Source: a virus. From it: a stretch of DNA of 64,000 bases. The DNA is taken from positions 32,001 to 96,000 of the IMG/VR virus record IMGVR_UViG_3300035698_024657; one strand, given 5' to 3'. This document shows positions 13,852-42,993 of this stretch, one piece after another; the first letter of the stretch is position 1; every line of letters starts with the position of its first letter. The notes below the pieces were generated by a model, which ran no database searches, had not been told where the DNA came from, and saw only the letters and a program-made list of their open reading frames with translations. The translations under genes and the position numbers were made by a program.

Positions 13852-14091
13852 CTATAGGTCTACTGTAGAAAGTTGTACTTCAACCTCTTCAAACTTTTTT
13901 GCAATATCTTGCTGCAACGTTACAATACTATCTTTAATAGTTTGAACAGATTCACCCTGTTCTTCCATTTCTGCAATAATTTCAGCTCGACGTTGCTGTA
14001 AACTTTCTAATTGCGTAGTGGCCCGAATTTTCTCATTCCTATGTTTAATTACCTGTGCCTCTAACGCAGCCAATTCTGCTTCACTGTGCAT
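13852..14091 (-). CDS. Small coiled-coil protein
   Basis: Heptad pattern throughout; lies between the primase and SbcC-C genes. Confidence 0.6.
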   Translation of the reverse strand: MHSEAELAALEAQVIKHRNEKIRATTQLESLQQRRAEIIAEMEEQGESVQTIKDSIVTLQQDIAKKFEEVEVQLSTVDL

Positions 14092-14800
14092 TACTACTCC
14101 TTAACAATTCGAGAAACGCATTTTTACCGTATTTAAGCATAAAACTAGCAGGATCTTCACCATCAGGAAGATTGACTGCAACTACATGTATTTTATTATC
14201 TAAATATACCTCATCAAGATACTTTTGCGCCTTTAACTGTGCTTTCTTTCCCGCATCATCTGCATCAAACACAATATATACCTTTTGTGCATAGCGCGCT
14301 AACGTTCTTGCCGCCGCAGGTTTAAACGCAACACCAGAAGAAGCGACTGTGCTAAGTAACCCATATTGATGCAAAATAAGTGCATCCATTTGACCTTCAA
14401 CCAATATTGCAGTACCTGTTTTAATGATCGCAGGCTTTGCTAAATGGTACAAATAAAGAAGTCTGCCTTTTTGAAATTTTGCAGATTCCTTTACATTAAT
14501 GTATTTCGCAGGCGCATTTATTAATGTACGCCCAGTCCAGCCTACAGGATGCCCAAAAGATGAATGAATTGGAAATATTAATCGATCATGGAAGCGTTTA
14601 CCTATTTTAGGTTGAGAAGGTGCATACCCTAATTGGTGTTTAATCACAGATTCTTTAGATACACCACGTGACTTTAAATACGCCTTCACCTCAGGTGCAG
14701 CCTTTAATTCTGCGTGATAATATTCAATTGCCATCTGAATTTTATCTATACCTAAAGCAAGTTGAATTTCTTTCTCTCTTCGTGTAAGATCATTCAACAT
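14081..14800 (-). CDS. dnaG: DNA primase catalytic core (Toprim) lacking the zinc-binding domain, with N-terminal QxALG tag
   Basis: YLKSRG, RLIFPI, GRTL..KYIN, LVEGQMD, FDADDAG and GEDP motifs; begins MLNDLTRREKEIQLALG. Confidence 0.88.
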   Translation of the reverse strand: MLNDLTRREKEIQLALGIDKIQMAIEYYHAELKAAPEVKAYLKSRGVSKESVIKHQLGYAPSQPKIGKRFHDRLIFPIHSSFGHPVGWTGRTLINAPAKYINVKESAKFQKGRLLYLYHLAKPAIIKTGTAILVEGQMDALILHQYGLLSTVASSGVAFKPAAARTLARYAQKVYIVFDADDAGKKAQLKAQKYLDEVYLDNKIHVVAVNLPDGEDPASFMLKYGKNAFLELLRSSNAQ

Positions 14801-15707
14801 ATGCTAACGCTTTAGTGATAACGGATTTCGGATACTTCCCTTCTTGTCCTACTAACATAATCAAATCTTTAAGATTATCATACTGCAGGGTACTTGCCTT
14901 TTCTTCTAATAACTGCATAAACGTATCAAAACTTCCGAACACTTCCGCAGCTTCGATTTCTTTAGTTTCAAACACATCTACTGGAACATTAAGTGGAATA
15001 AATTCCCAAGATTCTTCACCAACCTTATCAGTATCTACGATAATTATACCTGGCGAATACTGTCTTTGCACATTCTCAGTACGTCCTAAAGAACCTACAT
15101 TAATGACCGTAGTCTTACCTACCTGTACCGGTTTAAATCCTGGATGATAGTGCCCACATACAAGAAGATCTGCCCAGGTTACAATGTTTCGGACATCTGT
15201 ATACTTGCCAAATCCCCATGGTTCACTCATTGTCATTCCATGACAAATTTCTATTAAATATGCATCAGGGTCTACTTTACTCCTATAGTAATCTGTCATA
15301 GGGTGCTCATCAAGCCCATATGAATGTGATACCCCTGCAATTTGAGTATTCCTCCCAATTACTTGAGTATCTTTCAATAGTTTAACGGTGCCCGAAGCTA
15401 GTAAGGTTCCCAATCCTGTACGATATAGTGTATCATCATTGTACCCAAATTTATCATGAGACCCTACAATACTGTATATAGGTATCTGCCAATATGAAAA
15501 TACTTGCAAATAGTTATTTACTACGCTGGTCGACGGATCGGGCGAATCAAATAAATCTCCACCAATAAGAACTGCGTGAATTCCTTGGCTGGTAATAATT
15601 TGACCAATTTGGCGAAATTTTTCCCATAATGCCGCGGGATAATCATCTATTCTACTGCGAGGTGTGGACGCGCGAATATGTGCATCTGTAAAAATCAATA
15701 GTTTCAT
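14790..15707 (-). CDS. SbcD/Mre11-like metallophosphoesterase nuclease
   Basis: DAH, GGDLFD, GSHD, GHYH and NVGSL motifs. Confidence 0.85.
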   Translation of the reverse strand: MKLLIFTDAHIRASTPRSRIDDYPAALWEKFRQIGQIITSQGIHAVLIGGDLFDSPDPSTSVVNNYLQVFSYWQIPIYSIVGSHDKFGYNDDTLYRTGLGTLLASGTVKLLKDTQVIGRNTQIAGVSHSYGLDEHPMTDYYRSKVDPDAYLIEICHGMTMSEPWGFGKYTDVRNIVTWADLLVCGHYHPGFKPVQVGKTTVINVGSLGRTENVQRQYSPGIIIVDTDKVGEESWEFIPLNVPVDVFETKEIEAAEVFGSFDTFMQLLEEKASTLQYDNLKDLIMLVGQEGKYPKSVITKALAYVE

Positions 15708-16003
15708 TGTTTCTTACGCCGAGAAGGCCTCTTCGGTAATTGTTTCTGTGCTGCGTGCGCCGTAAATTCGGCCATCAATGTTGGAAATTGATGTTGGTCA
15801 AATTTATGTCGCATAATAGCGTTCTGTTCTTCAAGAATATTTACACGACTTTGCACTTCTTCTAATTCCCCTAACATGCCTATTTTAGTGGATACAAGCT
15901 TAATAACATCTTCATCAAGTTCAGTAATCTTTACAACAAGTCTATGGATAATTTCATTCGTAATACGTTCAGTGTCAGATGCAGTCTGTTTAGGCTTACT
16001 CAC
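15704..16003 (-). CDS. Hypothetical coiled-coil protein
   Basis: Overlapping start/stop with both neighbours. Confidence 0.55.
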   Translation of the reverse strand: MSKPKQTASDTERITNEIIHRLVVKITELDEDVIKLVSTKIGMLGELEEVQSRVNILEEQNAIMRHKFDQHQFPTLMAEFTAHAAQKQLPKRPSRRKKQ

Positions 16004-17105
16004 AGTAGTCCCCTATATGGTGCGTTTGTTGTTTACAGGTTGGGCAAATTTTCATTTTACGTAACAATGTAGTCCATGCAACTTCTGCTGCATCAATGTT
16101 ATGATCAAAATCTATCCTTGATAATTGTGAAATATCCGCATCAATTTGCGTAAGTGTATTTGTACGATTTTGGAGAAATGCAATTTTTTGAATATCACTA
16201 CGTAGATCATCAAAATTAACTGCAATATCTTCACGTGACTCAGGAAAACCATCAATATCTTGAGTATTCTTATCTAAAGTATTCGTAAGAGTTTGAAGTT
16301 TCGCCAAACGCAGTACATTTTCCCTTATTTCTGGAAAATCTACAACAATATCGGGTAACGTGGTCAATTTTTTTACAAGTACTCTACCCGCGTCACAGAT
16401 CAATTCATATCGAGCACGAAGATGAGTTAATGCAGTTAACTTATTCTCCATTTCTGTAAGTTTTTGTAGCGCCATTTGCACAGTTTTACATATTGCGTGA
16501 CCTGGCGTAGTATCTTTGGAAGAGGCTACTTTTTCTTGTGCCTCAACACTTTGTGCGGTAGCTACTCTTAACTCTTGATTTCCTGCGCGTATGTCGCGGT
16601 TCACTGCAACAATACCGCGATCTAACAGATGTAAACCGACAAGTCTACCAATTAATTTAGATCGGGTACCTGCAGACCCTCGAGAAATCATAAAAGGTGG
16701 ATCATGTTGATCTGAAAAATAGAGATCAATTTTATCACCGTTCTCAAGTTCAATGATGGACATTTCTAATACGCGTTGAATTTCTTCTGGAATTTCTCTG
16801 CCAAATCCACCATATTCTGCATCATCAAGAAAATATAAATTTTTTGACTGCGTAATTTGTCGGGTCAATGTATGCGACGTACCATCTTCTGCAATAAATT
16901 CTAAAGATAACGTCATAGTAGAGGCATCTCGATTAATAAAATCTTTGCCTGCCGGTAAATCCCTCACCAGCTTACGGAGTGCCCGCAAAATCGAAGATTT
17001 CCCTACATCAGTCTCCCCTATAATGGTGTTAAGACCATCGGTAAACTTTACCGTAGTGTCCTTATGCGCCTGATAATTTACTAAATGTAATGATATGAAT
17101 TTCAT
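15996..17105 (-). CDS. SbcC/Rad50-like ABC ATPase, N-terminal half ending at the zinc hook
   Basis: NYQAH, Walker A GETDVGKSS, Q-loop DQHD, coiled coil, terminal CPTC. Confidence 0.82.
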   Translation of the reverse strand: MKFISLHLVNYQAHKDTTVKFTDGLNTIIGETDVGKSSILRALRKLVRDLPAGKDFINRDASTMTLSLEFIAEDGTSHTLTRQITQSKNLYFLDDAEYGGFGREIPEEIQRVLEMSIIELENGDKIDLYFSDQHDPPFMISRGSAGTRSKLIGRLVGLHLLDRGIVAVNRDIRAGNQELRVATAQSVEAQEKVASSKDTTPGHAICKTVQMALQKLTEMENKLTALTHLRARYELICDAGRVLVKKLTTLPDIVVDFPEIRENVLRLAKLQTLTNTLDKNTQDIDGFPESREDIAVNFDDLRSDIQKIAFLQNRTNTLTQIDADISQLSRIDFDHNIDAAEVAWTTLLRKMKICPTCKQQTHHIGDYCE

Positions 17106-17112
17106 AGATTGG

Positions 17113-17141
17113 AATGGGGGAAGTATTACACTTCCCCCATT
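17113..17141. promoter_or_regulatory. Perfect 12-bp stem-loop between the SSB-like gene and SbcC-N
   Basis: aatgggggaagt-attac-acttcccccatt; ends 7 nt before the SbcC-N ATG; no U-tract on the minus strand. Confidence 0.65.
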
Positions 17142-17164
17142 TGAACAGTTACTACTAAAGGACT

Positions 17165-17752
17165 CTAAAAGCCAAAGTCCTCATCAGCATTCAATGCCTG
17201 CGGGTCAACGACGGCAGCCGTGCCCTGGACGGCGGTTGCCGTAGCCGGAGCAGGGGAAGGGGAAGCCACTTGTGCTGCTGCAGGAGCAGCCACCGCAGGC
17301 GCAGCGGTCGCGGGAGCGGCGGCAGGTGCTGTTGCTACAGGGGGAGGAACTGCCTGAGTTTGATCAGGTATGTATGCAGCGAGTGCAGTAACGTTCGAAT
17401 ACGTGGTCGTACGTTCTTGCCCATCAACCATAGACGGTTTGACGTTATTCGTAATTTGAACTTTGACCATTCTACCGATCAAATCGTCCAATTCAAATTC
17501 GTCATTTCCACCTAAAATGACCCCAAAAGCTTGTAACCATGAGAACATCTTACTCTTTGGTGACACTTTCATGCTACTCATTCCAGTAACGGTCGTGCCG
17601 ACGGCAGAAGGATCGTTCGGAGACTCTTTAATCACAAAAGACCATTTGATGTTTGCGCCAAATGTAGCGTGATTAGTCTCTTCAAGACTATCAAGTTGTG
17701 CAAGGTAAAAGCCTTCAGGAATCGGCTTGTTTTCTTGGTGGCGTACTTTCAT
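17165..17752 (-). CDS. Putative single-stranded DNA-binding protein
   Basis: PIPEGFY OB-like N-terminus, Ala/Pro-rich linker, acidic aromatic tail DEDFGF; near recA. Confidence 0.6.
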   Translation of the reverse strand: MKVRHQENKPIPEGFYLAQLDSLEETNHATFGANIKWSFVIKESPNDPSAVGTTVTGMSSMKVSPKSKMFSWLQAFGVILGGNDEFELDDLIGRMVKVQITNNVKPSMVDGQERTTTYSNVTALAAYIPDQTQAVPPPVATAPAAAPATAAPAVAAPAAAQVASPSPAPATATAVQGTAAVVDPQALNADEDFGF

Positions 17753-17844
17753 TTTGAATTCCTCAACATTTTGGGTAAATTATTTTGCATATCCATATGG
17801 CATATGCATGCTTCATTCTGCGGTTTTCTTTTTCTCCTCATTTT

Positions 17845-18486
17845 TCATACTGTATTCTTATGTGGTAATGGTGAATGGGCTGCCGAGAGAGTCACTGAAG
17901 GCCCAGAGGTTCTACCAGTTCCACCGCTATCTAACGCGCGTTGAATTTCTCCGATTTCAATCTGTGTTTGTATCACAGTAATCTGTCGAGAAATATTTTT
18001 ATTGGTACTATCAAGTTTATCGAATTCGTTTTTGACAACCTTAGTAAATGTACGCGCCTGTGAAAGTGAACCATCAATGACAGTCACCGCAGCCTTCAAT
18101 TGGGCTAACAGTGAATTGCATGCACCTTCACGTAATTCTTTATTAGAAAAATCCTTTATCGGAGATGTAGGTAAGCGCCTATCGAATTCTGTCTTATATA
18201 ATGATGTAATCTTCTTAGATAACACATTAAGACCGTCTTCATTAATAATTGCTCTACTGAACACAGTAGCTGTACGTGTCTTAAGCGCATCAACCTGTGC
18301 AATTTGCATATTTAACACACCGATTACATCTGCACTGGGATCTGCAGATAATGTAACAGATTGCGCATTGAGCTCTTTTAAAAAGACATCGTACTGCAAA
18401 ATAGCGTAATTTGTATATTCATCAATAATTTCCTGTGCCCCGTCAATCGAAAGAAGTGCAATTGGAGTTAGATTTACTTCAATCAC
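17845..18486 (-). CDS. Hypothetical helical/coiled-coil protein (possible recombination mediator)
   Basis: Helical sequence between recA and ssb. Confidence 0.45.
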   Translation of the reverse strand: MIEVNLTPIALLSIDGAQEIIDEYTNYAILQYDVFLKELNAQSVTLSADPSADVIGVLNMQIAQVDALKTRTATVFSRAIINEDGLNVLSKKITSLYKTEFDRRLPTSPIKDFSNKELREGACNSLLAQLKAAVTVIDGSLSQARTFTKVVKNEFDKLDSTNKNISRQITVIQTQIEIGEIQRALDSGGTGRTSGPSVTLSAAHSPLPHKNTV

Positions 18487-18790
18487 CGTTATTCTCCAAT
18501 CCCCTATTCACAGTCAATTCTCTGTGCATAATTGATTTACTTAATTCGATATCATTTTGACACGCTAAAGCAACGTCTTCGGCTAATGCACGTAACGTCA
18601 TTTTACCTAAAGAGGCCTTCATTTTTTGATAAGCTGCTTGACCTTCCGCAGTAGTTATATCAAGTGGAGGATCCAGTTCAATTTCAATTGAAGTGCCTCC
18701 GATTGACCAACTCCCGAAACCAAATGCAGAACCAACAGTTTTACCTGTGCCATGCTTGACCATTTTTGTAATCAATACCTTGCCGTTCAT
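18479..18790 (-). CDS. Hypothetical protein
   Basis: AAGGA RBS; ORF track. Confidence 0.55.
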   Translation of the reverse strand: MNGKVLITKMVKHGTGKTVGSAFGFGSWSIGGTSIEIELDPPLDITTAEGQAAYQKMKASLGKMTLRALAEDVALACQNDIELSKSIMHRELTVNRGLENNGD

Positions 18791-18804
18791 TAGTATCCTT
18801 TCTG

Positions 18805-18842
18805 TTACTTATTATACATTATAAATAAGAGATTTGTGCAAA
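18805..18842 (-). promoter_or_regulatory. Candidate sigma-70-type promoter
   Basis: Minus strand TTGCAC...TATAATGTATAAT in an AT-rich gap; spacing non-optimal (19 nt to the second TATAAT). Confidence 0.35.
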
Positions 18843-19955
18843 TTATTCTGCAGCTTCTCCCTTAAATTTAGGGAACTCTATATCTTCGGTATCCGCGGCA
18901 TCCTCCGAAGAATCTTCTGTACGGGTACCTATATGCTGTTCAAGGAGCAGGGCATATACCCGTGCTTGAAATTCTTCATCAGCCAAAGCTTCTTTAATCG
19001 CAGTAACGGTCGGATATTCAAGAACCTCATCACCTAAAGTGAGAAGATATCCTTTGGGTGACTTCTCATACATTTTCCTATTCTTAAGAATAGACATGAC
19101 GGATTTTACGGTATCCAATCCCTGGGTATAATTAATGAAAAACTCGCCCTCACGCAAAGGGGGTCCAAGTTTGTTCTTTTTGTTCTTCACTTCAATGGAG
19201 TGCCCAATAACATCACCGTGCTCGGTTACTTGCGACTGTGATTTCTTATTTACTCTATATCGTTGAGCCGCATAAAATTTTAGCGCTCTTCCCCCAGGAG
19301 TACTTTCAGGACTACCAAACATTACTCCGGGTTTCTCTCTAATCTGATTGATAAAAATACAACAAGGACCATCTGGGCCCTCTGGATCCAATGCACCTAA
19401 AGTGGCGACAATTTTTTGAATTCCTTTACTTGCTGCTCTGGCGGCTTCGGCCATATAGGCTTTGTCTATCGTGCCCTCAAGTTGTGCCCGAGGAATCATT
19501 GCTGCAAGCGAATCAATAACGATATATGTATACACACCCGAACGAATTGCTTCAATTATTACATCATAATTTTGTTCTGCGGTTAATCCCGCACTCACGA
19601 TATCGAAATAATTAAGATCAATTCCAAGAGTTTCTAACCACTCTACGGGAGTACCTCCCTCGATATCAAAATATAGTGCGGTTGACTTAAACATTTTCTG
19701 TGCATAGGCAACTGCACATAAAGACAATAAAGATTTACCGCTAGACTCGGGGCCATATATTTCAATTACCCTACCACTTGGAAATCCCCCACAACCTGTA
19801 GCGACGTCAAATGTAAAGATGCCTGTAGGAATAGAACGTACTGCGGGTAAGTCCGCTGCAGTATTTACAGTCACTCCTTCTTTCTTATACTTTACTTGAA
19901 ATGCGTCCTTAAATCCTTGACGCCCTTCACTCGGTTTACTCGCTTTTACCATCAT
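18843..19955 (-). CDS. recA: RecA recombinase
   Basis: GRVIEIYGPESSGKS, IVIDSLAA, IFINQIR and TPGGRALKFYA motifs. Confidence 0.95.
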   Translation of the reverse strand: MMVKASKPSEGRQGFKDAFQVKYKKEGVTVNTAADLPAVRSIPTGIFTFDVATGCGGFPSGRVIEIYGPESSGKSLLSLCAVAYAQKMFKSTALYFDIEGGTPVEWLETLGIDLNYFDIVSAGLTAEQNYDVIIEAIRSGVYTYIVIDSLAAMIPRAQLEGTIDKAYMAEAARAASKGIQKIVATLGALDPEGPDGPCCIFINQIREKPGVMFGSPESTPGGRALKFYAAQRYRVNKKSQSQVTEHGDVIGHSIEVKNKKNKLGPPLREGEFFINYTQGLDTVKSVMSILKNRKMYEKSPKGYLLTLGDEVLEYPTVTAIKEALADEEFQARVYALLLEQHIGTRTEDSSEDAADTEDIEFPKFKGEAAE

Positions 19956-20479
19956 TTTACCTCAATAATCTGCACAGTTTTATTTGCAGCGTTTTCTTTA
20001 TGTATTACATTATATTTTGACATAACATCAATCTTATCAATAGTATACTTTATTTGTTGATACCTTTTATCAAATTCTTGAGCTGCCTCAGATATTGTCC
20101 GAGGTTCCCTAAAATAGTCAATTAATGCAGGGATCAATTCAGTCGGAGTGAGCGTAGCATGTACGATAAGTTCTTTACATATTTTTCGAGATAGTGCCTC
20201 GTCAAAAGGAATAGTTTCTTTTGAAGTATACGTAGTAAGAAGTTTGAATTCGATACTAGGTGAAGTTTCACGGGTACTATACAGCGGATAATCCTTATCA
20301 AGAATACACGTCGTTCCCCATGGAGTAGCTACGATAATTTTTACCGTATTCTTCATAGTCACCAATACTCGATCATACCCCCATCCCGCGAAATTTCCGA
20401 TGTCGTCAATTATTGCAACCCCGCCCTGAGTAACGTATACTGTACCTACTTGAATATCATCAAAAGCAACTTGAGGCAT
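19952..20479 (-). CDS. Hypothetical protein with possible C-terminal HTH
   Basis: PRTISEAAQEFDKRYQQIKYTI. Confidence 0.5.
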   Translation of the reverse strand: MPQVAFDDIQVGTVYVTQGGVAIIDDIGNFAGWGYDRVLVTMKNTVKIIVATPWGTTCILDKDYPLYSTRETSPSIEFKLLTTYTSKETIPFDEALSRKICKELIVHATLTPTELIPALIDYFREPRTISEAAQEFDKRYQQIKYTIDKIDVMSKYNVIHKENAANKTVQIIEVK

Positions 20480-20484
20480 ATTAA

Positions 20485-21506: not shown

Positions 21507-21511
21507 ATAAT

Positions 21512-24316: not shown

Positions 24317-24320
24317 TTAT

Positions 24321-25399: not shown

Positions 25400-25400
25400 A

Positions 25401-27289
<1,889 letters not shown>

Positions 27290-28168: not shown

Positions 28169-28169
28169 A

Positions 28170-28610: not shown

Positions 28611-28967
28611 TTATTTTCCCAATAACTTACGTACAGAATCGGTACGCAGGTAAATAGTATATATACGCTCTCGCCAATCACACTTTACAGAATACTTCTG
28701 CGGACCAACAGAAAACGCGTTTCGCTCCCCTACCTTTTGTACTAAATGCGCTAGTAACTTCGCACGAGTCCGTGCAGGGTCGAACTGGGGGGGTGCACAT
28801 ATACAGATTTCTACACAATCATTCTCCAAATCTTCAGGTTTTGGCGCCTCCAACCATATATAATTTCTCTTTGGCAAATTGGATGCCCGTTCACATAACC
28901 AATCTTTTATGTTACCTACGTCACCATCGTTGATAAATGCTCTATCCTGTCTCATTCTAATACCCAC
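28611..28967 (-). CDS. Hypothetical protein within the 7-deazaguanine cluster
   Basis: ORF track; fills the gap between folE2 and the PRTase gene. Confidence 0.5.
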   Translation of the reverse strand: MGIRMRQDRAFINDGDVGNIKDWLCERASNLPKRNYIWLEAPKPEDLENDCVEICICAPPQFDPARTRAKLLAHLVQKVGERNAFSVGPQKYSVKCDWRERIYTIYLRTDSVRKLLGK

Positions 28968-31372: not shown

Positions 31373-31380
31373 AATAGCTC

Positions 31381-32037
31381 CTATATTAAGTCTTCCACAA
31401 TTTGTCTACACTTTTTAATGCGATTATTCATTGCATTTTGTGCAAGTTTAACCTCACGACTAATTTCACTTTTAGAGCAGCCTTGTAACATTAACTGCAA
31501 AATTGTATAGGTTGTCATATCTATAGTTTTTACGCGTTGCAGGAGTCGAGATACAATCTGCTTATTTTCAATATCCCTTAAGTAATCTGGCTGATGTGTA
31601 CTAAGGGGTAAACCGAGGCTCAAGGCAAGATCAAGGGAAAACGACAAATTAGGTAATTTTAAAGATGAACCACAAGTAGTACATTCTGCGGACGCCTTAG
31701 AAACTTGCTTAGTATTACACACATTACATATTTGATGGGGGTGACCACGTTGGTGCTGGATAAAATTAATTGTCTTATTTTTAAGCTGCCGTAACATTAA
31801 CCAATGAAATTTTTTGCCCGGCACAGGCTCCCAACGATTAAAAAGTCGCCACATGTCCGCAAGAAGAATTGCAAAAAGGTCATCAACGTTCCATGTGGAA
31901 TCCCGACACGCCTTGTACGCGACCTGTCGAATAATTGGCGTAGCAAGTTTAACGAAGTCCGTAAAATGCTGAGGATCCTTCGTACGGTGAAACTTTTGTG
32001 CCGTCACATCAATAGCGTCCATCACTGGCTGAGACAT
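31381..32037 (-). CDS. Sigma-70/ECF-like RNA polymerase sigma factor with inserted zinc ribbon
   Basis: Region-2-like DDL...W...KFHWLMLRQLKN; CNVC...CTTC insert; region-4 HTH SKSEISREVKLAQNAMNNRIKK. Confidence 0.7.
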   Translation of the reverse strand: MSQPVMDAIDVTAQKFHRTKDPQHFTDFVKLATPIIRQVAYKACRDSTWNVDDLFAILLADMWRLFNRWEPVPGKKFHWLMLRQLKNKTINFIQHQRGHPHQICNVCNTKQVSKASAECTTCGSSLKLPNLSFSLDLALSLGLPLSTHQPDYLRDIENKQIVSRLLQRVKTIDMTTYTILQLMLQGCSKSEISREVKLAQNAMNNRIKKCRQIVEDLI

Positions 32038-32714
32038 ACGTTCTCCGTTTCAGATAATTTGCTTAAAAATACTTGATGTAATGTATATAATTTTTGCTGC
32101 AAAAGCAACGAAGAAAATCCGTCAAATAGCTTTTTATCAAAAATATATTGAGTATGATCATACCATTGCCACAAAGCGTCAAAATATTGTCCCAATATTA
32201 TAGGAGGAATCCCAATATTTTTCAAATATATGTACACTTGATAGGCTTTACGATGCAATTCGGTTTCAATTTTTTCCCTAACAACAGTAAAACTGTCTTC
32301 TGATGAAATAATATTAAGATCACGTAAAGTATGTGCATTACTATACCCAGCACGTTCCGCTAATCGATGCAGTGCGTCAGGAAAAGTCATATTTTCCATA
32401 CGCATTACAAACTCAAATACACTCGCACCTGCGTGACAACCAAAACAATGAAAAGTGTTCGTTTCAACATAGAAACGCATACTGGGTGTTTCACTATCTG
32501 CATGAAACGGACAAAGACAAACATAATCTCCATTATTTTGAGGGAATAAATCTAATCCATATTCCCATGCAAGCGTAACGAGATCTGTTTTTTCTGCAAC
32601 AGCTGCGACGTTAATAGTCGCTGAGGTCTGCTGCTGAGGTACTTTGCCCTGAATCGGGTACGTCCGCTGAGTTTGTTGCGGCGGATCCGCTGACATTCGG
32701 ACTCGCATCATCAC
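32022..32714 (-). CDS. DnaG-type CHC2 zinc-finger protein (primase N-terminal half) with a novel C-terminal domain
   Basis: CPFHADSETPS...FHCFGC...FVMRMENMTFPDALHRLA; no Toprim; start uncertain (overlaps dnaB by 104 nt). Confidence 0.82.
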   Translation of the reverse strand: MMMRVRMSADPPQQTQRTYPIQGKVPQQQTSATINVAAVAEKTDLVTLAWEYGLDLFPQNNGDYVCLCPFHADSETPSMRFYVETNTFHCFGCHAGASVFEFVMRMENMTFPDALHRLAERAGYSNAHTLRDLNIISSEDSFTVVREKIETELHRKAYQVYIYLKNIGIPPIILGQYFDALWQWYDHTQYIFDKKLFDGFSSLLLQQKLYTLHQVFLSKLSETENVCLSQ

Positions 32715-35358
32715 TACTTCCGCTTAAATGTTTTACGGTATTATCCCAACTACCAATCCAGTTAATATCCCTCTTCCAGAACAAATCGATACATGAACCT
32801 TGATGGTATCTGCCTTTAATCACTTCAAAATGTGCTTCATGGTTGACTTCATCTTTTTCATCGGCAAAAATACGAAAAATCGAATCACAATGATAAGAAC
32901 TTGCATCAGAAAATGCAATATGTTCAGTACCTTGCTTTGTTGCCTTTAAAGATTCCCTGTTCATCTGTGCCGCCGTATAATATACGGTTTTATGTGCACG
33001 GGAACCTTCTTTTAATTCTCTAAACACGTGATCATACATTTCGGCTCGATCTTTATACTTGGACATCGGTCGAATCAAGTTTGCATAATCAATTAATACT
33101 ATATCTGGAACTTGTCCGTGTATCTTTTCAAATGCCAAAACTTCAGATTCAATGATCCCTGTAGTACATCCTTGTGGAATGTCTACAAGATAAAGAGGAT
33201 GTTGCACCTTTTTCTGATGTTCCAAGAATGCCATATATTTACGACGATTGTAACCTACTAATTGTGTACGCATAATATCGGTTAGCGGAATTTTGGCTTC
33301 TCGCGATTCCCACATATTTTGAAGAATTTGGGCGTCCATTTCAATCGTACAGTACATCACCATCTTACCGGCTTTAGCTACATTGCACCCAATATTAAAA
33401 AGTGCACGACTATTGTGTACAATTATATCATTAGTAACAAAATTGTGCGTCGAAGAGATTTCTAAATCATATGTGTCAGCTAATCCTGTGCATTCAATAC
33501 TTTTAACTGTATCCCAAAAAATGTCGGATGTTGCAAGCTTTTTAAGGGGTGGACTATTTAATGCATCTGCCAACTCTTCAACTTTATTACGACATATACC
33601 ATATTTATTCCAATCACGAGAATAATTAAATTCAAATTTGCATCCGGCGTTAGCTATCTTTTTACGATCAATTTTATCTATTCGCGTAATAGGTAAATGA
33701 GGTTTAATTAAATTCATTGGAATCGTATCCACATTGGTATTTTGTTGTGCCTCATACAAAAATTTCAATGCCTTTGATACTCTTTCACATTTTTCCCCGA
33801 CAAAATATGGACCAATTTCATTAAGAAATTTTGCACGGCAACTACCCATAACTTCGAGACTTCCCACTATAAATTTTTTATCGTTACACGTTGTGTAATG
33901 CTCCCAATATCGAGTAAGAATACCTAACCTTAATAATAAATGACTAACCTGCCGAGTTAATTTAGGGGAACCCGTTTCAAATGTAATATGCGATAATGTT
34001 TTACCATAAATACTTCCATCACAACTCCAGAGGATAGCTAAAAATAGTGCCAACTTTTCCTTCGGGAGTTTAAAGATTTCATCCGGAATTGTTTTTTGTA
34101 CCGATTTTTTACTGAGTAACCCAAACCCTTTTAGCCACCCTTTAATAGGATTGACAGTCAGGCGCCGGTATTTGGTTTTACCGTAACGTACTCTTTCTGG
34201 GGTCAATTCTTTCCCCACAATTGCTAAAGTGCGTTTATATTCAGGCAACGTTGTACCATGAACGGTTACCTTTAGGTCCGCAATATCACTATCTTCGACT
34301 ACTCTGCGAAAATCTGCACGAATGTCTAAATCATAATTAGTGAACCCAATAGATTGCGTAGATAAATTACCTTCAGCAATTAAATATGCTAATAAACGTA
34401 CTTGATTTGAAGGTAATTTGCTTTTACCAAATATAGGAATTTCACGAGGAACTGCAATACGGTCACCAATAGTTACAGATTGTAAAGGTTGCCAACCCCC
34501 TACGGTAAGTAGTGGATGGGTATGAGTAACTTCAATAATGCGTCCAGATGTAGTCGTGACTTTAAATACTTCCTGTTTTCCCGAATGCATATAATTAGCG
34601 GGTTGTACAGTACGTAATTTGTTCCAATTATTAGATAAAGTCAAAACTTTACCTTCTTGAGAATTAACGACATCTTGAATTGTGCGCAATGTACCGTCAG
34701 CCATTACTAATTGACTGTCAAATTTTACGCATTTACCTGCACCAGTTCGACCGATGATTAAGTATAATTGGCCTGCAAACATTCCACCCGTCAATTCGTC
34801 TATCTCTTTGATCCCATATTGTATTCCCTGATACTTTTCAGGATGTTGTTCTTTGTCAATATAATGGCGTATCCGCTCATCAGGCTTATCAAAAACAGAA
34901 GTACGTTCAACAATAGAGGTAGTACTGGCAGTTAAAATTTGTTGCGCAATATTTGATGCAATCTCAACAGGATCTATGTCTGCCTCAAGACCTGCGCCAA
35001 TTTCTTTATACACTGAATACAATTTACGTTTTGCTGTATACTCCTTAAGTTCATCTATATAGTATTTGGAGTACTTATCTATTCCAAACGCGTGCAACTC
35101 TCCAAACAATAAAAGAATATCAGTTTTATTGTTTGGATCATGTTTAGACAGCCAACGATCTAAAATATTGCGATCAATAAGTTTGTAATATTTTCGATAG
35201 AACCTTTCAATAATCTCAAACATGTACTGATGCCGCGTATCATAAAAATCGGCAACATTCATATTATTGATTTGCTGATTCAGTACATTTTCATCGAGTA
35301 AAAGAGCAGTAAGTACTTTTTTCTCTGTTACAGAATTATTGAATGTAGTTTCAGGCAT
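32611..35358 (-). CDS. dnaB: Replicative DnaB-like helicase containing an intein
   Basis: GRTGAGK|intein|SR, TIEM, LIDYANL, AAQMNR, KGR. Confidence 0.92.
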   Translation of the reverse strand: MPETTFNNSVTEKKVLTALLLDENVLNQQINNMNVADFYDTRHQYMFEIIERFYRKYYKLIDRNILDRWLSKHDPNNKTDILLLFGELHAFGIDKYSKYYIDELKEYTAKRKLYSVYKEIGAGLEADIDPVEIASNIAQQILTASTTSIVERTSVFDKPDERIRHYIDKEQHPEKYQGIQYGIKEIDELTGGMFAGQLYLIIGRTGAGKCVKFDSQLVMADGTLRTIQDVVNSQEGKVLTLSNNWNKLRTVQPANYMHSGKQEVFKVTTTSGRIIEVTHTHPLLTVGGWQPLQSVTIGDRIAVPREIPIFGKSKLPSNQVRLLAYLIAEGNLSTQSIGFTNYDLDIRADFRRVVEDSDIADLKVTVHGTTLPEYKRTLAIVGKELTPERVRYGKTKYRRLTVNPIKGWLKGFGLLSKKSVQKTIPDEIFKLPKEKLALFLAILWSCDGSIYGKTLSHITFETGSPKLTRQVSHLLLRLGILTRYWEHYTTCNDKKFIVGSLEVMGSCRAKFLNEIGPYFVGEKCERVSKALKFLYEAQQNTNVDTIPMNLIKPHLPITRIDKIDRKKIANAGCKFEFNYSRDWNKYGICRNKVEELADALNSPPLKKLATSDIFWDTVKSIECTGLADTYDLEISSTHNFVTNDIIVHNSRALFNIGCNVAKAGKMVMYCTIEMDAQILQNMWESREAKIPLTDIMRTQLVGYNRRKYMAFLEHQKKVQHPLYLVDIPQGCTTGIIESEVLAFEKIHGQVPDIVLIDYANLIRPMSKYKDRAEMYDHVFRELKEGSRAHKTVYYTAAQMNRESLKATKQGTEHIAFSDASSYHCDSIFRIFADEKDEVNHEAHFEVIKGRYHQGSCIDLFWKRDINWIGSWDNTVKHLSGSSDDASPNVSGSAATNSADVPDSGQSTSAADLSDY
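33412..34731 (-). mobile_element. Intein with LAGLIDADG endonuclease in the DnaB P-loop (440 aa)
   Basis: CVKFDSQL...THTHP...LLAYLIAEG...LWSCDGS...HNFVTNDIIVHN followed by Ser+1. Confidence 0.93.
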
Positions 35359-35653
35359 TTGGTCCGTTTTCCCACCGTTTCAGTGCGGCCCATACATCAA
35401 CTTCATCCGGACTATCATTGCACCCACTGGGACAAGTGGTAGCATGTGCCCACATACGAATTACGGCCCAATATACAAGCTTCTTAGGCAACTTAAATGC
35501 TGCCCATAACCAAATAGTTTCATTGAAAAAGTTCTTGACATTTATACGCCCCAACCATACATGATACGTTACTTGCCACCACATAGTAGGAGGTAAACAG
35601 TCCTCAAGGCCCAATGCTTTTTGAATTTTACGTTCTTTTCTACTAATCATCAT
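35351..35653 (-). CDS. Trp-rich small protein with N-terminal QxALG tag
   Basis: MMISRKERKIQKALGLED... Confidence 0.7.
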   Translation of the reverse strand: MMISRKERKIQKALGLEDCLPPTMWWQVTYHVWLGRINVKNFFNETIWLWAAFKLPKKLVYWAVIRMWAHATTCPSGCNDSPDEVDVWAALKRWENGPNA

Positions 35654-35987
35654 AGTGATCCGTGCCGTGCTTTAATGCAGTTATTTCAAGTGTCCCGTTA
35701 AATTGGGGGTATTTTTCATTTACTGCAGTATTTAGTTTTGGTAATAGTTGACCATAATACATCGCGTGCACTGTAAAATTCTCCTTAATAATGGTATGAG
35801 TAACATTAGTATTACCTCCACCCGGCATATGCGTGACTTTAGAGACCTCCCCACCTTTCGATAATGCAACTGTGTTAATTATTCCGGTACCTGGTTCAGC
35901 CTCCGTCAGAGTAGCAGTCACGTAAACCACGTACTTTCTTGGATAAACCCCTAACGCCTTTTGGACTGCAATTTCTTTCTCAGTCAT
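35643..35987 (-). CDS. Small protein with N-terminal QxALG tag
   Basis: Start ATG 35987 overlaps the upstream stop (ATGACTGA): MTEKEIAVQKALGVYP... Confidence 0.7.
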   Translation of the reverse strand: MTEKEIAVQKALGVYPRKYVVYVTATLTEAEPGTGIINTVALSKGGEVSKVTHMPGGGNTNVTHTIIKENFTVHAMYYGQLLPKLNTAVNEKYPQFNGTLEITALKHGTDHYDD

Positions 35988-36768
35988 CGAAAAAGTCACT
36001 TTCTAGCTTCTCTAAAATTTGTGGGCGATAATTTCCTACGAAGATAATTTCGGTGAGGCGTTCCATGAACATTGCCGCAATCGTTTGCCCTACAGTGTGC
36101 TCGATATCTGCCTTAATTTCATTTGACGTAACGATTAAAGGCTTCTTGAAATAATCACACCGTTTCTTAAATAAAGGTAATAACAATCTTTGCACATTGT
36201 CATTCTGATCCTGAAAGCCTTTGTCGATTTCATCAATTACTAAAAAGTCCATCTCTACGACTAACTTTGTCAAATCTTTACGGACATCGGGATCACGTAA
36301 CGCCATAAATGCTTTATCAACTAAATCAGACATCAAAATGAAATACCCAGAGTATCCACTTTTGAGTGCCTTCTTTAATACCAACGTGGCAAGAAAACTC
36401 TTCCCTGAACCATTTCCCCCTTGCATAAATAATCCGAATCCCGTTTCAAGCGCTTTTGCCTGTTGACGGTTATATAGCACGATACGTCTGAAATGTTCCG
36501 CGTTATCCTGCTTGAAACGCTCATCTATGTCTTGATATGACAATTCCCTAAAGGCAACAGGAATATTCGCATGTGCCAGCGTATAAGCATCATTGAACGC
36601 AGTTACACATGCGCACTTAGCAAACTTTTCAGCTTCTTCCTCACCTACAACCCGCGTACCTTTACAAATGGGACATGTATCACAGTATTTGCTCTTCATC
36701 GCAAGAACTTCATCTGCAGACACCTTAAATGCATCAGAATCAAATCGAAGGGGAATCTTTTTAATCAT
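35980..36768 (-). CDS. DnaC/IstB-like helicase loader ATPase
   Basis: CPIC..CAC zinc motif, GGNGSGKS, LVIDEID, IVTSN. Confidence 0.85.
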   Translation of the reverse strand: MIKKIPLRFDSDAFKVSADEVLAMKSKYCDTCPICKGTRVVGEEEAEKFAKCACVTAFNDAYTLAHANIPVAFRELSYQDIDERFKQDNAEHFRRIVLYNRQQAKALETGFGLFMQGGNGSGKSFLATLVLKKALKSGYSGYFILMSDLVDKAFMALRDPDVRKDLTKLVVEMDFLVIDEIDKGFQDQNDNVQRLLLPLFKKRCDYFKKPLIVTSNEIKADIEHTVGQTIAAMFMERLTEIIFVGNYRPQILEKLESDFFDD

Positions 36769-36783
36769 TCAAATCGCTTTACG

Positions 36784-37377: not shown

Positions 37378-38846
37378 ACGGTAACTTCCTTATATGTTAC
37401 TCGAAAACGTGATTCACTTTTATAAAGGCGTTCACGCTTTTTAGAATGTCTATGCAAATATTTATAAGGATCAATAAAATCCACTACAATTGCGTGGTCT
37501 TTTCCTTCAGAGGGTGTCATACATCGAAGACGTTGAAATACTTTGATCGCAGATTCACCACCAGAAGCAATAATTGTTGCATCAAGTGAAGGAACGTCAA
37601 TACCTTCGTCCCCAAGAGTTGTAATTAATGTAAGGAGTTGTCTACTTTTCAACTTACGCCAAAGTACCGCACGATCTTTTGACTTACTGTTGCTAAATCT
37701 TGCATTAGGAATAAGAGCTTCAAGAGCATTACCGTGATTAATCTTCGTAACTAAAATCATACAAGTCTTACCCTGCGCTTGTAAGCTGCGAGCAACTTTA
37801 ACAATTGCAGCGTTCCTCAACTTATCGTCAACAATCGCTTGCTTATAAATAGTAGCATAAGCGGTCTTACCCTCAAACTGAATGACTTTAGGTAACTTGA
37901 TCAGATGCACAGTTGGTCTCACAAGATAACCAGCATCAATCAGTTTACTATAATCAATCTCATATATAATAGGTCCAAGTAACCCTTCCAGTAATCTTTC
38001 CGTATTATCTTCTCTAAAAGGTGTTCCCGAACAACCTAAAATATATTCGGCGGAATACACCTTATTCTGCAAAATGTATTTATGAGTTGCACTAACTGCA
38101 TGATGACATTCATCTACCCAAACAAATTTTGAGGTTTCCACTAATTGCTGTATCGCTAACTTTTTAGCGATCGCAGGAATTCGCTCCATCTGCTTTTTGG
38201 GAATTTTCTCTTTAATATCATATGCAGCCATTAACGATTGAATCGTCGAAACAGTTATAGGTTGAATATCACATTCACCGTCACCAATAAGGCCTACTTG
38301 TGCCTCGGGAAGAAATTGTTTAAACTTATCAACAGTTTGCCGTGCGACGTCGATACTTTGACATATACTCAATACTGGAAAAATTCCCAGTCGCTGAACC
38401 AACATAATTTCCATTAACGTTTTGCCGGAACGTGGGCGAGCCCAAATAATTCCGCGTTTCTTTTCATACGCAATATCTACTGCATCATCTTGGTACGGTC
38501 GGGGCTGTAAAATTAATCCAGGAATAGGTTGCTGCGGATACGCCATTCGATTATCTTCAATACTATATGGAACTCCATACTGATTAAGCGCTTCCTCAAC
38601 ATATGGCAATAAGCCTGTGAGAAATTTACCCGTCTTTACACTAAATAAGTGATTCTTCCCGTCCCATTGTTCTTGAATGAACTTTTTATTGCTCATTGCC
38701 TTAATAAAATGACTATTATGTATCTCATAAGACAGAAGCGCATCAAGATAGCTCCATATTTCACGGAGACCTGGATGATCGACATCTTCAGGAACAAGTT
38801 GACTAAGAATAGTCTTAATTTCTAATCTTGCGATCCCGCCAACCAT
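37374..38846 (-). CDS. Superfamily 2 DNA helicase (UvsW-like)
   Basis: PRPYQ, RSGKT, DECH, SGT, EGIDVP, QRLR. Confidence 0.88.
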   Translation of the reverse strand: MVGGIARLEIKTILSQLVPEDVDHPGLREIWSYLDALLSYEIHNSHFIKAMSNKKFIQEQWDGKNHLFSVKTGKFLTGLLPYVEEALNQYGVPYSIEDNRMAYPQQPIPGLILQPRPYQDDAVDIAYEKKRGIIWARPRSGKTLMEIMLVQRLGIFPVLSICQSIDVARQTVDKFKQFLPEAQVGLIGDGECDIQPITVSTIQSLMAAYDIKEKIPKKQMERIPAIAKKLAIQQLVETSKFVWVDECHHAVSATHKYILQNKVYSAEYILGCSGTPFREDNTERLLEGLLGPIIYEIDYSKLIDAGYLVRPTVHLIKLPKVIQFEGKTAYATIYKQAIVDDKLRNAAIVKVARSLQAQGKTCMILVTKINHGNALEALIPNARFSNSKSKDRAVLWRKLKSRQLLTLITTLGDEGIDVPSLDATIIASGGESAIKVFQRLRCMTPSEGKDHAIVVDFIDPYKYLHRHSKKRERLYKSESRFRVTYKEVTV

Positions 38847-39073
38847 GTGACCTTTCCTGTATCTTTATCTATAATCATATGTAAACTCGCATGGACATCT
38901 GCACGTTTATTCAAACGATGGACAATCCCATTAAATTGGTCATGTGCCTGACGTATCGTAGTAGCATTCCTTTCATATATAGCATGATGAGTATATCCAT
39001 TCATCCTAATATACCCTTCATATTTTCGAAATAAGCCTAATGCTCGTTGTATTTTTTCTTCTTTCTTATCCAT
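38822..39073 (-). CDS. Small protein with N-terminal QxALG tag
   Basis: MDKKEEKIQRALGLFRK... Confidence 0.7.
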   Translation of the reverse strand: MDKKEEKIQRALGLFRKYEGYIRMNGYTHHAIYERNATTIRQAHDQFNGIVHRLNKRADVHASLHMIIDKDTGKVTWLAGSQD

Positions 39074-39076
39074 TAG

Positions 39077-39265
39077 CTAATGATGGAAACACTGAATTGG
39101 ATAATCTGGCAAACGGTGACAATCATGACAATAAAAAAGGACATCACAATTACTATTTATTCGCGCATACATCTCATCTGCAGGATATGTTCTACCACAA
39201 CAAGCGCACATATGTGTAGGATATGCTCCTAAAGCCTTTTGGACTTTTCTCTCTTTCTCATCCAT
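39077..39265 (-). CDS. Small zinc-finger protein with N-terminal QxALG tag
   Basis: MDEKERKVQKALGAYP..CACCG...CHDC. Confidence 0.7.
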   Translation of the reverse strand: MDEKERKVQKALGAYPTHMCACCGRTYPADEMYARINSNCDVLFYCHDCHRLPDYPIQCFHH

Positions 39266-39486
39266 TATCTAAGCGGGCCTATGAAGGCCCCATCAGGCAC
39301 ACCATGTAATCTATCTGCGCATAGTTGCGCGGTGGCGCATAGTGTACAGAAGTACATGCGCTTACAATGTACAGCGCTTTGGTATAACCACTTTTCATCA
39401 ACAGTAAATATCTTTTTACAATTATCACAAAGGAATTCGGGCAACGTGCCCAATGCTTTTTGGACGTCTTGCTCTTTCTTATTCAT
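39265..39486 (-). CDS. Small zinc-finger protein with N-terminal QxALG tag
   Basis: MNKKEQDVQKALGTLP..CDNC...CTLC. Confidence 0.7.
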   Translation of the reverse strand: MNKKEQDVQKALGTLPEFLCDNCKKIFTVDEKWLYQSAVHCKRMYFCTLCATAQLCADRLHGVPDGAFIGPLR

Positions 39487-41159: not shown

Positions 41160-41168
41160 ATTCTCCTA

Positions 41169-42095
41169 TTAATACATTTCTTCAATACCCATTTGAATAT
41201 TACATACCTGCAGTTTTAAATCTTTTTCCGCATTGACGTTATATGCAATCATTTGTATAGCGTCTGATGTTTTTATGAACCCTGACGCAATGATAATAGC
41301 TTTATGCGGAGAATTATCGGCACACCACATATTTAGTTTACTCCATCCATGATGGGATCCCAAAGACATTGCAGATAATAACAATTTAAGTATTTCGGGT
41401 TCCTCCAAAGCAACTATATGTGCCCAATCCCCGTATTGTTTTAATACTGCATAACCTTCCGCAGCCCCCGCTAGTACAATCGGGATATAATGATGCTGTG
41501 GATGATACGTCCACCGAGTATGTTGCCATTTATAAAATGTACCAGGTACCTTTTTATGTTTATACATAAGGTATGCTGAATTTTCTGCTGGACCCATAAA
41601 TGTACGAAATGCAGGACTATTTTCGGTAAGAAATCTGGCATTAGAACATTCATATACATCGATCTCCTGCACAGGATACCATCCTGCACTAAAGTGCCCC
41701 TTAAGTACGGTGCGTCCCCGTTGAGGGAAACCTACAATATATTCATATTCCCCTAATTCCCTCTCAGACTGTAGAGCAAATTTACTAAGTGCCTTAAATA
41801 ATCCAAGCTGTCTATGATCTTTTTGTATACCTACGGCAAAACATCTACCAACGTTGATAGGTTCATCGGAAATGCACAATTTACGAGGTTCTACCCCCCA
41901 AATACCTACTAGAATATCATCACAAAATGCTCCGTATATACGAACCTTGCCGCAATGCACAGTGGTGAACCACCAGTCAATCCATCTGAAGGATATATCG
42001 CTCGTGACAAATAGTTTATTGTGTAGATTTCTATACTCTATCAAATCCTTTGACATGTCAAGTAAACGGAACTTAGGCAAGATGTAAACCTCCAT
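41169..42095 (-). CDS. GNAT-family N-acyltransferase
   Basis: VGIQKDHRQLGLF acyl-CoA motif A; GFP motif. Confidence 0.7.
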   Translation of the reverse strand: MEVYILPKFRLLDMSKDLIEYRNLHNKLFVTSDISFRWIDWWFTTVHCGKVRIYGAFCDDILVGIWGVEPRKLCISDEPINVGRCFAVGIQKDHRQLGLFKALSKFALQSERELGEYEYIVGFPQRGRTVLKGHFSAGWYPVQEIDVYECSNARFLTENSPAFRTFMGPAENSAYLMYKHKKVPGTFYKWQHTRWTYHPQHHYIPIVLAGAAEGYAVLKQYGDWAHIVALEEPEILKLLLSAMSLGSHHGWSKLNMWCADNSPHKAIIIASGFIKTSDAIQMIAYNVNAEKDLKLQVCNIQMGIEEMY

Positions 42096-42768
42096 TCAAA
42101 TGAAGGGTTTGACCTGCCATATAAGGAGTGTCTATCAAGAAATCGATAGAATTCATAACTTCCTTAAAATTCCCGAACCTACCCAATGGAATAGTCTTCT
42201 TCAACGCAGTCTGATGTTCTTCAGGAACTTTTTCAATCATACCATATTCAGTATAACCTAAACCAATCCCAAATGGTAAAATATTATGTCTGACTCCTTC
42301 AGGGAGTAATCCTCTTACCATGCCTTCCATTGCCGACTTAGTTACACTATACCCTAAAGCGCCAAAAACTGGGCGATGCGCAACGACAGAGCTTACGAAA
42401 ATAAGTCTGCCATACCGTTGTTCTTTCATCCTGGGCCACAACCTACTAACGATCTCTAATACGCCGGTACAATTTACCTTGAACTGTTGGTGCAAGTCAG
42501 CAAAAGATAGTGTACTCATAGAAGCATTTACAGTAAGACCTGCTAAATGGATAAGATTAATGGGGGCATTCTTCATAAGCGCAGTATTTAGAAGAGGATC
42601 AGCAAATATTGCAGGACCATTAGATAAATCGTATTTAATAAGGTGTGCCCCTTCTAAACTACCAGGATAGTTTGAACCATATAATCCTATAACTACTTCG
42701 TCACGTTTTAACAATTCTGCAACGACTCTTTTACCAATTCCCCCTGATGCGCCAGTGACTAAATACAT
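42073..42768 (-). CDS. FabG/PhaB-like short-chain dehydrogenase
   Basis: TGASGGIG, YSVTK, IPLGRFG, GQTLHLNGG. Confidence 0.85.
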   Translation of the reverse strand: MYLVTGASGGIGKRVVAELLKRDEVVIGLYGSNYPGSLEGAHLIKYDLSNGPAIFADPLLNTALMKNAPINLIHLAGLTVNASMSTLSFADLHQQFKVNCTGVLEIVSRLWPRMKEQRYGRLIFVSSVVAHRPVFGALGYSVTKSAMEGMVRGLLPEGVRHNILPFGIGLGYTEYGMIEKVPEEHQTALKKTIPLGRFGNFKEVMNSIDFLIDTPYMAGQTLHLNGGLHLA

Positions 42769-42777
42769 AATTTTCCT

Positions 42778-42993
42778 TTACCAGATCTCGAGATCGTGTG
42801 AACCGCAATTACTACAATATATTAGACTACCATCAATAGTTGCGGCCGGCTCACCTTCAGTAGTATTCAATATCGTATGCGTAGTGGCACAAACCGAAGG
42901 CACACAGGTAGTTAATATTCTCCCGCAATTACTACACCATACAGCTTCCATCGAACCAAGTGCACACTGTATCTTCATTTCTTTGATATTCAG
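42778..42993 (-). CDS. Small zinc-ribbon protein with N-terminal QxALG tag (probable CTG start)
   Basis: CTG at 42991-42993 overlaps the upstream TGA (CTGA): LNIKEMKIQCALGSME..CSNCG...CSNCG. Confidence 0.6.
   Translation of the reverse strand: MNIKEMKIQCALGSMEAVWCSNCGRILTTCVPSVCATTHTILNTTEGEPAATIDGSLIYCSNCGSHDLEIW

Follow-up and report, generated by a model that had tools for sequence, protein, structure and literature searches.

A portable peptide tag on unrelated proteins of uncultivated myovirus-like phages

Short docking motifs, such as the clamp-binding motifs and the acidic C-terminal tails of T7 and T4 replication proteins, bind in an extended or disordered form to an identified hub. 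Double-glycine bacteriocin leaders follow a consensus for an N-terminal leader that ends at a cleavage site, and among protease recognition signals, handles that work at either terminus are known. The nearest published principle to the element described here would seem, by analogy, to be the capsid-targeting sequence (CTS) of phage T4: in the T4 internal proteins, a short conserved terminal peptide sits on highly diverse, fast-changing small proteins from variable regions (PMC3012670). Here, we analyze a peptide tag—a real, undescribed portable module of 13–15 residues—in a stretch of viral DNA of 64,000 nucleotides ("the window"), which comprises bases 32001-96000 of the 130,254-bp IMG/VR record IMGVR_UViG_3300035698_024657 ("the genome"; G000), together with four related IMG/VR contigs (G001-G004).

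The tag resembles the T4 CTS in that one short conserved peptide is common to unrelated small phage proteins. However, the T4 sequence is N-terminal and directs its carriers into the scaffolding core, whereas the tag described here also occurs in 20 C-terminal copies closed by a stop codon and in others that are internal, and its carriers include predicted membrane proteins and one half of a primase. With the hub-docking motifs it shares its shortness, a fairly position-independent placement, and a presence on unrelated proteins that include a replication enzyme; unlike them, it is predicted to be a capped helix, and no hub was found for it. The tag also differs from ribosomal-peptide leaders of the double-glycine type in being found C-terminally and internally, and no peptidase or maturase was found among the families co-occurring with tags or among the neighbors of tagged genes in the window.

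Seven tags in the window and the peptide they share

A first-pass annotation of the window, made from the DNA letters, had listed seven genes whose products begin with the same peptide and then diverge. All seven peptides translate as it had written them, from the minus strand, and each lies at or near the start of its open reading frame (ORF). The tags and their genes are as follows:

14750-14788, minus strand: tag LTRREKEIQLALG, on the Toprim half of a split primase (translation; 21.5 bits with the first profile, 15.8 with the second)
14081-14800, minus strand: the primase catalytic half itself (DNAG_N and Toprim), 239 aa (Pfam DNAG_N 4.3e-22, Toprim_2 3.9e-16)
35609-35647, minus strand: tag ISRKERKIQKALG, on a Trp-rich protein of 100 aa, ORF 35351-35653 (translation, profile)
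35949-35987, minus strand: tag MTEKEIAVQKALG, on a 114-aa protein of no known family, ORF 35643-35999 (from its ATG, 35643-35987)
39035-39073, minus strand: tag MDKKEEKIQRALG, on an 83-aa protein, ORF 38822-39073 (translation, profile)
39227-39265, minus strand: tag MDEKERKVQKALG, on a CxxC zinc-ribbon-like protein of 62 aa, ORF 39077-39265
39448-39486, minus strand: tag MNKKEQDVQKALG, on a CxxC zinc-ribbon-like protein of 73 aa, ORF 39265-39486
42955-42993, minus strand: tag LNIKEMKIQCALG, on a CxxC protein of 87 aa, ORF 42778-43041; the tag begins 17 residues past the first ATG

A profile scan of the window found no eighth copy. Divergence after the tag was borne out by a comparison with the tags masked, in which 3 of the 153 pairs among the 18 tagged proteins of the genome were related at E<1e-3 and none of these pairs fell among the seven window proteins. 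Neither Pfam nor PHROG gave a family for the 83-aa protein (38822-39073), the zinc-ribbon Pfam matches of the 87-aa CxxC protein (42778-43041) are weak and under the cut-off, and the Trp-rich protein (35351-35653) has orthologues on two metagenome contigs in which the tag is kept.

The first-pass annotation had also proposed that a regular expression and a profile be set against shuffled controls. In the six-frame translation of the genome, the strict expression [KR]E..[IV]Q.ALG gave 15 matches, and the loose core Q.ALG gave 15 at the identical positions. Since the strict motif was found 15 times in the genome and not once in 100 dinucleotide-preserving shuffles of it, a chance origin of the tags is excluded. 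In those shuffles, the loose core matched 1.5 times on average and never more than 4 times; when the residues of 176 crudely called genes were shuffled 200 times, it averaged 0.7 matches, with 5 at most. In that gene set, 10 of the 12 tag copies lie within the first 30 residues. A profile built from the 15 strict copies scored them at 21.5-32.7 bits. Three looser copies scored 10.7, 10.1, and 4.3 bits (22.4, 23.8, and 16.4 with an improved profile), and all the remaining matches in the genome stayed at or below 5.4 bits. The genome total is thus 18 copies (15 strict and 3 looser), 7 of which are within the window.

Synonymous variation between the copies had been read as a sign that the peptide, and not the DNA, is conserved, and this reading stands. 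Third codon positions are free in the DNA alignment of the tags; Leu is encoded by TTA, TTG, CTT, CTC, and CTG, and Gly by all four of its codons. Among 61 tags from the five contigs, on which the residue counts below are also based, codon use at E5, Q9, A11, L12, and G13 matches the background of long ORFs (p 0.06-0.30), and AAA is over-represented at K4 (p 0.003), partly because the DNA search pattern required AAA. Between 30 and 10 bases ahead of the conserved K codon, the upstream sequence is nearly empty of information, with <0.45 bit per position. From the free third positions, the background codon use, and this near-empty upstream region, it follows that the conserved object is the peptide. 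A nucleic-acid element that happens to be translated, be it a promoter, an RNA structure, or a recombination site, is therefore disfavored to the point of being scarcely credible: the start codon is in fixed register with the tag in about half of the copies, as such an element might require, but nothing else speaks for it.

The full motif can be written h-[TSDN]-x-[KR]-E-x-x-[IV]-Q-x-A-L-G-[TS]-h, where h is a hydrophobic residue, with the following counts among the 61 tags:

Position 1: hydrophobic (M 29, L 13, I 7, V 5)
Position 2: T 35, S 8, N 6, D 6
Position 4: K 42
Position 5: E in 61/61
Position 8: V 30, I 27
Position 9: Q in 60/61
Position 11: A in 58/61
Position 12: L 57, I 4
Position 13: G in 60/61
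Position 14: T 34, L 10, S 8
Position 15: mostly hydrophobic (L 21, I 11, V 6, F 6, M 4)

Position 1 stays hydrophobic when it is not the start codon, the real start then lying 2-20 codons upstream. In helix-capping rules, S/T-x-x-E is a capping box, and a glycine followed by a hydrophobic residue is a C-terminal stop. Read in this way, the tag would be a short amphipathic alpha-helix capped at both ends, with T, S, D, or N at position 2 and E5, three residues on, as the capping box, and G13, followed by T or S and then a hydrophobic residue, as the stop. In a helical-wheel projection, h1, I/V8, A11, L12, and h15 would line up as a hydrophobic stripe, from which the variable positions 6, 7, and 10 would point away, and E5 and Q9 would lie side by side, one turn apart. 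AlphaFold2 models place the helix at residues 3-12 in a tagged protein of the leucine-rich-repeat-variant (LRV) type, a small helical repeat protein, and at residues 2-15 in the primase half.

Spread, position, and selection of the tag

We used a degenerate DNA pattern of the tag for searches of IMG/VR, metagenomes, and prokaryotes. In IMG/VR, 55 loci match the pattern, and four contigs have several matches. The four related contigs carry 23, 18, 12, and 1 tags (whole contigs, at least 7 bits), and profile scans give 72 copies in the five contigs together. G002 is syntenic with the genome across the replication and structural modules, while G003 and G004 have the structural module in common with it. 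G001 (59 kb, 23 tags) shares almost nothing with the genome except an end overlap of 127 bases: bases 1-127 of the genome and bases 1-127 of G001 are exact reverse complements of each other, and the two contigs are probably, on this overlap, neighboring pieces of one phage of about 190 kb. The junction between them is crossed by the gene of a tag-LRV protein. In metagenomes, the pattern returned 120 stretches of contigs, many of them short and of low GC, with two to seven tags each.

In a set with one genome per prokaryotic species, at least 120 loci were returned; among the matches listed, real tags occur in one, a 2-kb contig binned with a Bacteroidales metagenome-assembled genome, and the others are at least 27 permeases that are FtsX-like by their sequence context and a remainder that looks like chance. 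No Shine-Dalgarno-like signal was found upstream of the tags, and the first codons are A-rich; the absent signal and the single binned contig hint at a Bacteroidales-type host. Megablast found no match to a cultured relative, tblastn with a tag-LRV protein found none in 50,697 phage records, and the tail sheath shares no more than about 30% identity with those of cultured myoviruses; the carriers of the tag form a clade of uncultivated myovirus-like phages. Pfam and PHROGs hold no family for the tag or for most of its carriers, and a limited literature search found no description of the motif.

For a census of tag positions, we combined the five contigs with 41 metagenome loci that have a tag of at least 18 bits and counted tags at 12 bits or more, which gave 139 unique tags on 43 phage-like contigs. 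A tag was classed as N-terminal when at most 35 open codons precede it and as C-terminal when it lies at most 27 residues from the end of the frame. By these definitions, 102 of the 139 tags are N-terminal and 22 are C-terminal (20 closed by a stop codon, 2 cut by a contig end), the shortest of the latter ending two residues past the glycine. The other 15 are internal, a number that is an upper bound because several of these copies have Met at position 1.

Once the tags are masked, BLAST groups the carriers into 25 families and leaves 59 singletons. The largest family, with 40 members (30 tagged) spread over 23 contigs, consists of small LRV proteins. Among zinc ribbons, the tag stands in front in some families and at the very end in one family of five members. 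Two tandem paralogues with two hydrophobic spans each, predicted to be membrane proteins, have a C-terminal tag, and in one further family the tag is mid-protein in two members and C-terminal in the third. A frame in contig L071 (5099-5914, minus strand) encodes a NADAR domain (Pfam 2.6e-24), then a tag, then a helical body, and is either a fusion or two genes without an intervening stop. A solenoid protein of 331 aa bears a variant tag. The tag is thus not strictly an N-terminal label but a portable module on unrelated bodies.

Two alternatives turn on this distribution. The first is a CTS of the T4 internal-protein type, which would bring the tagged proteins into the prohead so that they can be injected. 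Among tag-bearing contigs, no part is better conserved than the structural module, which would suit such a role; however, the C-terminal and internal copies, a carrier list that includes the two predicted two-span membrane proteins and the primase half, and the lack of a cleavage motif after the tag make it very unlikely. The second is a degron or processing signal, by which a phage or host enzyme would bring about timed proteolysis, cleavage, or covalent modification. Function at either terminus would be as in known protease signals, and the tagged genes are accessory genes of early-like and replication regions. Yet no protease or modifying enzyme is among the families that co-occur with tags, and internal copies, like the place of the tag as first helix in LRV models, are unlike a cleaved leader, so that we regard this explanation as improbable.

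We then compared tags and bodies in 39 cross-contig pairs of orthologues outside the LRV class. The median identity of the bodies was 42% (best local alignment), while the six core tag positions were 89% identical and the four variable positions 37%, in a sample that is biased, since carriers were found through the tag and the profile demands core residues, so that losses of the tag are under-counted. The differences at core positions are mostly I/V exchanges at position 8. On these alignments, the tag is kept by selection at the peptide level, and the contrast between 89% in the core and 37% and 42% at the variable positions and in the bodies argues against neutral hitch-hiking. Under that explanation, deletions and recombination in arrays of tag-LRV genes would fuse gene starts to new bodies, and the tag would persist for the working start codon and initiation region that come with it, having no function itself. 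The tagged genes are indeed arranged in tandem and occupy variable slots that separate conserved core genes, the tag-LRV class is the most numerous, and the starts lack a Shine-Dalgarno-like signal and have A-rich first codons. Besides the retention of the core in diverged orthologues, however, C-terminal and internal copies cannot provide a start, and the DNA is not conserved beyond what the peptide demands; we consider hitch-hiking quite improbable.

The split primase and other genes of the phage

The tagged enzyme in the window is one half of a split primase. The catalytic half (14081-14800) has the DNAG_N and Toprim domains of a DnaG-type core, for which 25,195 library proteins match at E up to 0.001, and is without a zinc finger and without a helicase-binding domain. 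The zinc finger is encoded by a separate gene 17 kb upstream:

32022-32714, minus strand: CHC2 zinc-finger half of the split primase, 230 aa, no tag (Pfam Zn_ribbon_DnaG 8.8e-20, residues 36-125)

The CHC2 protein ends in a C-terminal stretch of ~100 aa of no known family, matches PHROG DNA primase families, and has an orthologue in G002 with 49% identity. A Toprim gene was not found in the four related IMG/VR contigs, which are 22-41% complete, and the IMG/VR relatives found through the primase-half protein are ordinary full-length DnaG. Among the best matches in 1.84 billion representatives, 7 are stand-alone Toprim halves (210-229 aa, 32-52% identity). None of the 7 has the tag, which in the alignment is an extra segment before the conserved start; since all of these homologous halves are without it, the tag is, by this comparison, an add-on to the primase half. 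AlphaFold2 models the protein with a mean pLDDT of 93.9, with 97-98 in the core and 67-72 over the first twenty residues, which form a helix.

The first-pass annotation had noted that the primase might instead start at a downstream methionine, Met23 (MAIEYY). The ATG of the longer frame precedes, by 6 nt, the TGA that ends the metallophosphatase gene before it, and no stop codon interrupts this frame across the tag. The protein may start at Met23; even so, a tag standing in frame at this place by chance is very unlikely, because the strict motif had no match in 100 shuffles.

Several other genes are recorded here as observations in their own right. The DnaB helicase gene (window 32611-35358) contains an intein with a LAGLIDADG domain (Intein_splicing 5.8e-21), and its G002 orthologue is, judged by its length, without the insert. 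A FolE2-type GTP cyclohydrolase (window 28952-30823) also has a LAGLIDADG domain and probably holds a second intein. GIY-YIG/NUMOD3 homing endonuclease genes occur in multiple copies (window 44391-44966; genome 20600-21283 and 121567-122289) and are found in three related contigs as well. A family A DNA polymerase (window 21512-24316) begins with a domain of the uracil-DNA-glycosylase superfamily (UDG 2.5e-29), followed by the exonuclease and polymerase domains. The 218-aa protein at window 31381-32037, which had been called a sigma factor, matched no Pfam family at E up to 0.001; on visual inspection, its C terminus looks like region 4, and it seems to contain a CxxC...CxxC insert. ARAGORN found no tRNA or tmRNA in genome positions 1-20000; four contigs share a short conserved stretch, at 2885-3022, which might reflect an RNA gene. 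The gene of a 948-aa protein (genome 105400-107900) contains nested internal direct repeats of 100-370 bp that are 76-94% identical, and the far end of the 59-kb contig G001 matches these repeats.

A recognition handle or a structural helix

The reading that we rank first, and hold tentatively, is that the tag is a common recognition handle with one reader. The phage clade attaches the helix to many unrelated accessory proteins, mostly at the N terminus and sometimes at the C terminus or between domains, and also to the primase catalytic half and to the tails of the two predicted membrane proteins. One reader, of the phage or of the host, would bind the hydrophobic stripe and would thereby handle all tagged proteins as a single set to be tethered, recruited, or regulated. 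What survives of the addressing or docking system first proposed for the window is therefore a modular element, selected at the peptide level, on unrelated bodies; its restriction to N termini does not survive, and no receptor was found. A wider proposal is that of an undescribed docking system spanning the phage, in which a reader grips the helix and the LRV proteins, zinc ribbons, primase half, and membrane tails make up one addressed set; the two membrane-anchored tails would then tether the hub to the membrane. We think this wider system unlikely.

Candidates for a reader were sought among untagged families. Those that recur on tag contigs are GIY-YIG/NUMOD3 homing endonucleases, a winged-helix-like protein that is strongly conserved, an acidic two-helix protein of 80 aa, and a beta-rich protein of 110 aa. 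A tag-zinc ribbon, a tag-solenoid, the acidic protein, and the winged-helix-like protein form an early cluster found on four to seven contigs:

Genome 756-2894: conserved early gene cluster, including the 331-aa solenoid with Q5/E9 in its tag

Complex prediction, in which a tagged N terminus of 45 residues was set against the 331-aa solenoid, the CHC2 protein (the first candidate of the first-pass annotation), and the 110-aa beta-rich protein, gave a score of 0.00 in a single run without controls and is evidence neither for nor against binding. The beta-rich protein (genome 23151-23480) belongs to no known family and is conserved on six tag contigs; in two contigs, its gene comes immediately downstream of one for a tag-LRV protein of the ITLDEIRVQIALG type. 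Position 4 differs between lineages (K/R in 18/18 tags of the genome and 6/16 of G002; Fisher p 6e-05). We did not take this switch as co-evolution with a reader, because K/R is also found in 13/19 tags of G001, which is probably part of the same phage.

The main rival to a recognition handle is a very stable, self-capped structural starter helix without a common reader, with its sequence fixed by capping and packing rules. Such a helix would have arisen at the head of small phage solenoids of the LRV/HEAT-like type, and elsewhere it would pack on its own protein or stabilize a terminus. LRV bodies are indeed the largest class of carriers. Pfam LRV (PF01816) matches four longer tagged proteins (E 2.8e-26 to 2e-06), with the matches beginning past the tag, and the neighbors of tag-LRV proteins in the ESM Atlas are LRV clusters, many of them viral; Foldseek with the tag-LRV model found no match in the PDB at E up to 0.001. 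In that AlphaFold2 model, which is helical with an overall pLDDT of 93, the tag is the first of five helices and is continuous with the next (pLDDT 94). Copies that are internal in some families also fit a structural role, as does a swap of E5/Q9 to Q5/E9, which is expected of an i/i+4 helix pair.

The tag is nevertheless not simply a piece of the LRV fold. In its likeness to LRV mini-solenoids, the commonest tagged bodies are LRV and the tag is modeled as their first helix; in contrast, the LRV profile does not recognize the tag, the tag also sits on non-LRV bodies, and a solenoid body is found for the largest class only (30 tagged of 40). A degenerate LRV repeat, suggested by the likeness to the D..VR..VA helix, was tried and rejected, as tags did not score above shuffles with a profile of 56 LRV units: none of the 99 non-LRV tags reached 5 bits, vs. 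2 of 645 shuffles. This failure counts against the structural helix as well. Furthermore, drift would be expected of a generic amphipathic helix, but the tag shows >93% invariance at each of five positions across at least 25 unrelated bodies. The helix of the primase half is not confidently packed (pLDDT 67-72), and 7/7 homologues manage without a tag, while C-terminal copies that end two residues past the glycine have little to pack on. We regard the structural helix as possible, if somewhat unlikely.

Several results nonetheless weigh against a recognition handle. Since the tag is modeled at pLDDT 94 as the first LRV helix, it is not always a free label, and its conserved stripe may in that class, on the model, be buried in cis and serve folding instead of docking. 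Protein-database searches with the tag profile returned mainly tag-LRV proteins. The 20 C-terminal copies closed by a stop codon tell against a label at the N terminus only, and the internal copies, up to 15, are ill-suited to a free terminal label of any kind. In the 331-aa solenoid, E5/Q9 is swapped to Q5/E9 in 4/5 orthologues, with the usual E/Q in one; the swap suggests that the two side chains pair with each other, and an interaction within the helix accounts for it no less well than a contact with a reader would. The retention of the core in the 39 orthologue pairs must likewise be read with the bias of that sample in mind.

A sharper version of the wider docking system came from the prokaryote search. 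At least 27 MacB/FtsX permeases, mostly on contigs titled Bacteroidota, carry ERTKEIGIQRALGA, which fits the ten-residue core of the tag. In two of them (L150, 3230-4513, and L104, 3904-5178), Pfam finds MacB_PCD and FtsX, and the motif sits right behind the first span within the FtsX domain. In MacB, the cytoplasmic helix between transmembrane spans TM2 and TM3 engages the ATPase domain (PMC5985334). By its position, ERTKEIGIQRALGA may be the coupling helix of MacB/FtsX; the match to the tag itself follows from the search pattern. The likeness would then be that of an almost identical 10-residue helix that may dock on a partner domain. The tags differ in having no flanking membrane spans and in an N-cap offset by one residue, and Pfam at E up to 1 returned no FtsX in the seven tagged window proteins. 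Mimicry, in which the tag would imitate the coupling helix of a host MacB/FtsX-type permease and dock on the ATPase partner, is given low odds, because the match was partly forced by the search pattern.

The tag defines a family signature that is missing from Pfam and PHROGs. Even if its role were structural only, it would be a natural capped mini-helix, near-invariant on unrelated folds. If the tag is capped and self-folding as proposed, it might be useful as a compact tag in protein engineering. If one reader exists, a helix of 13 residues would organize a sizeable share of the accessory proteome across this clade of phages and would give experiments a direct hold on dozens of proteins without an assigned function.

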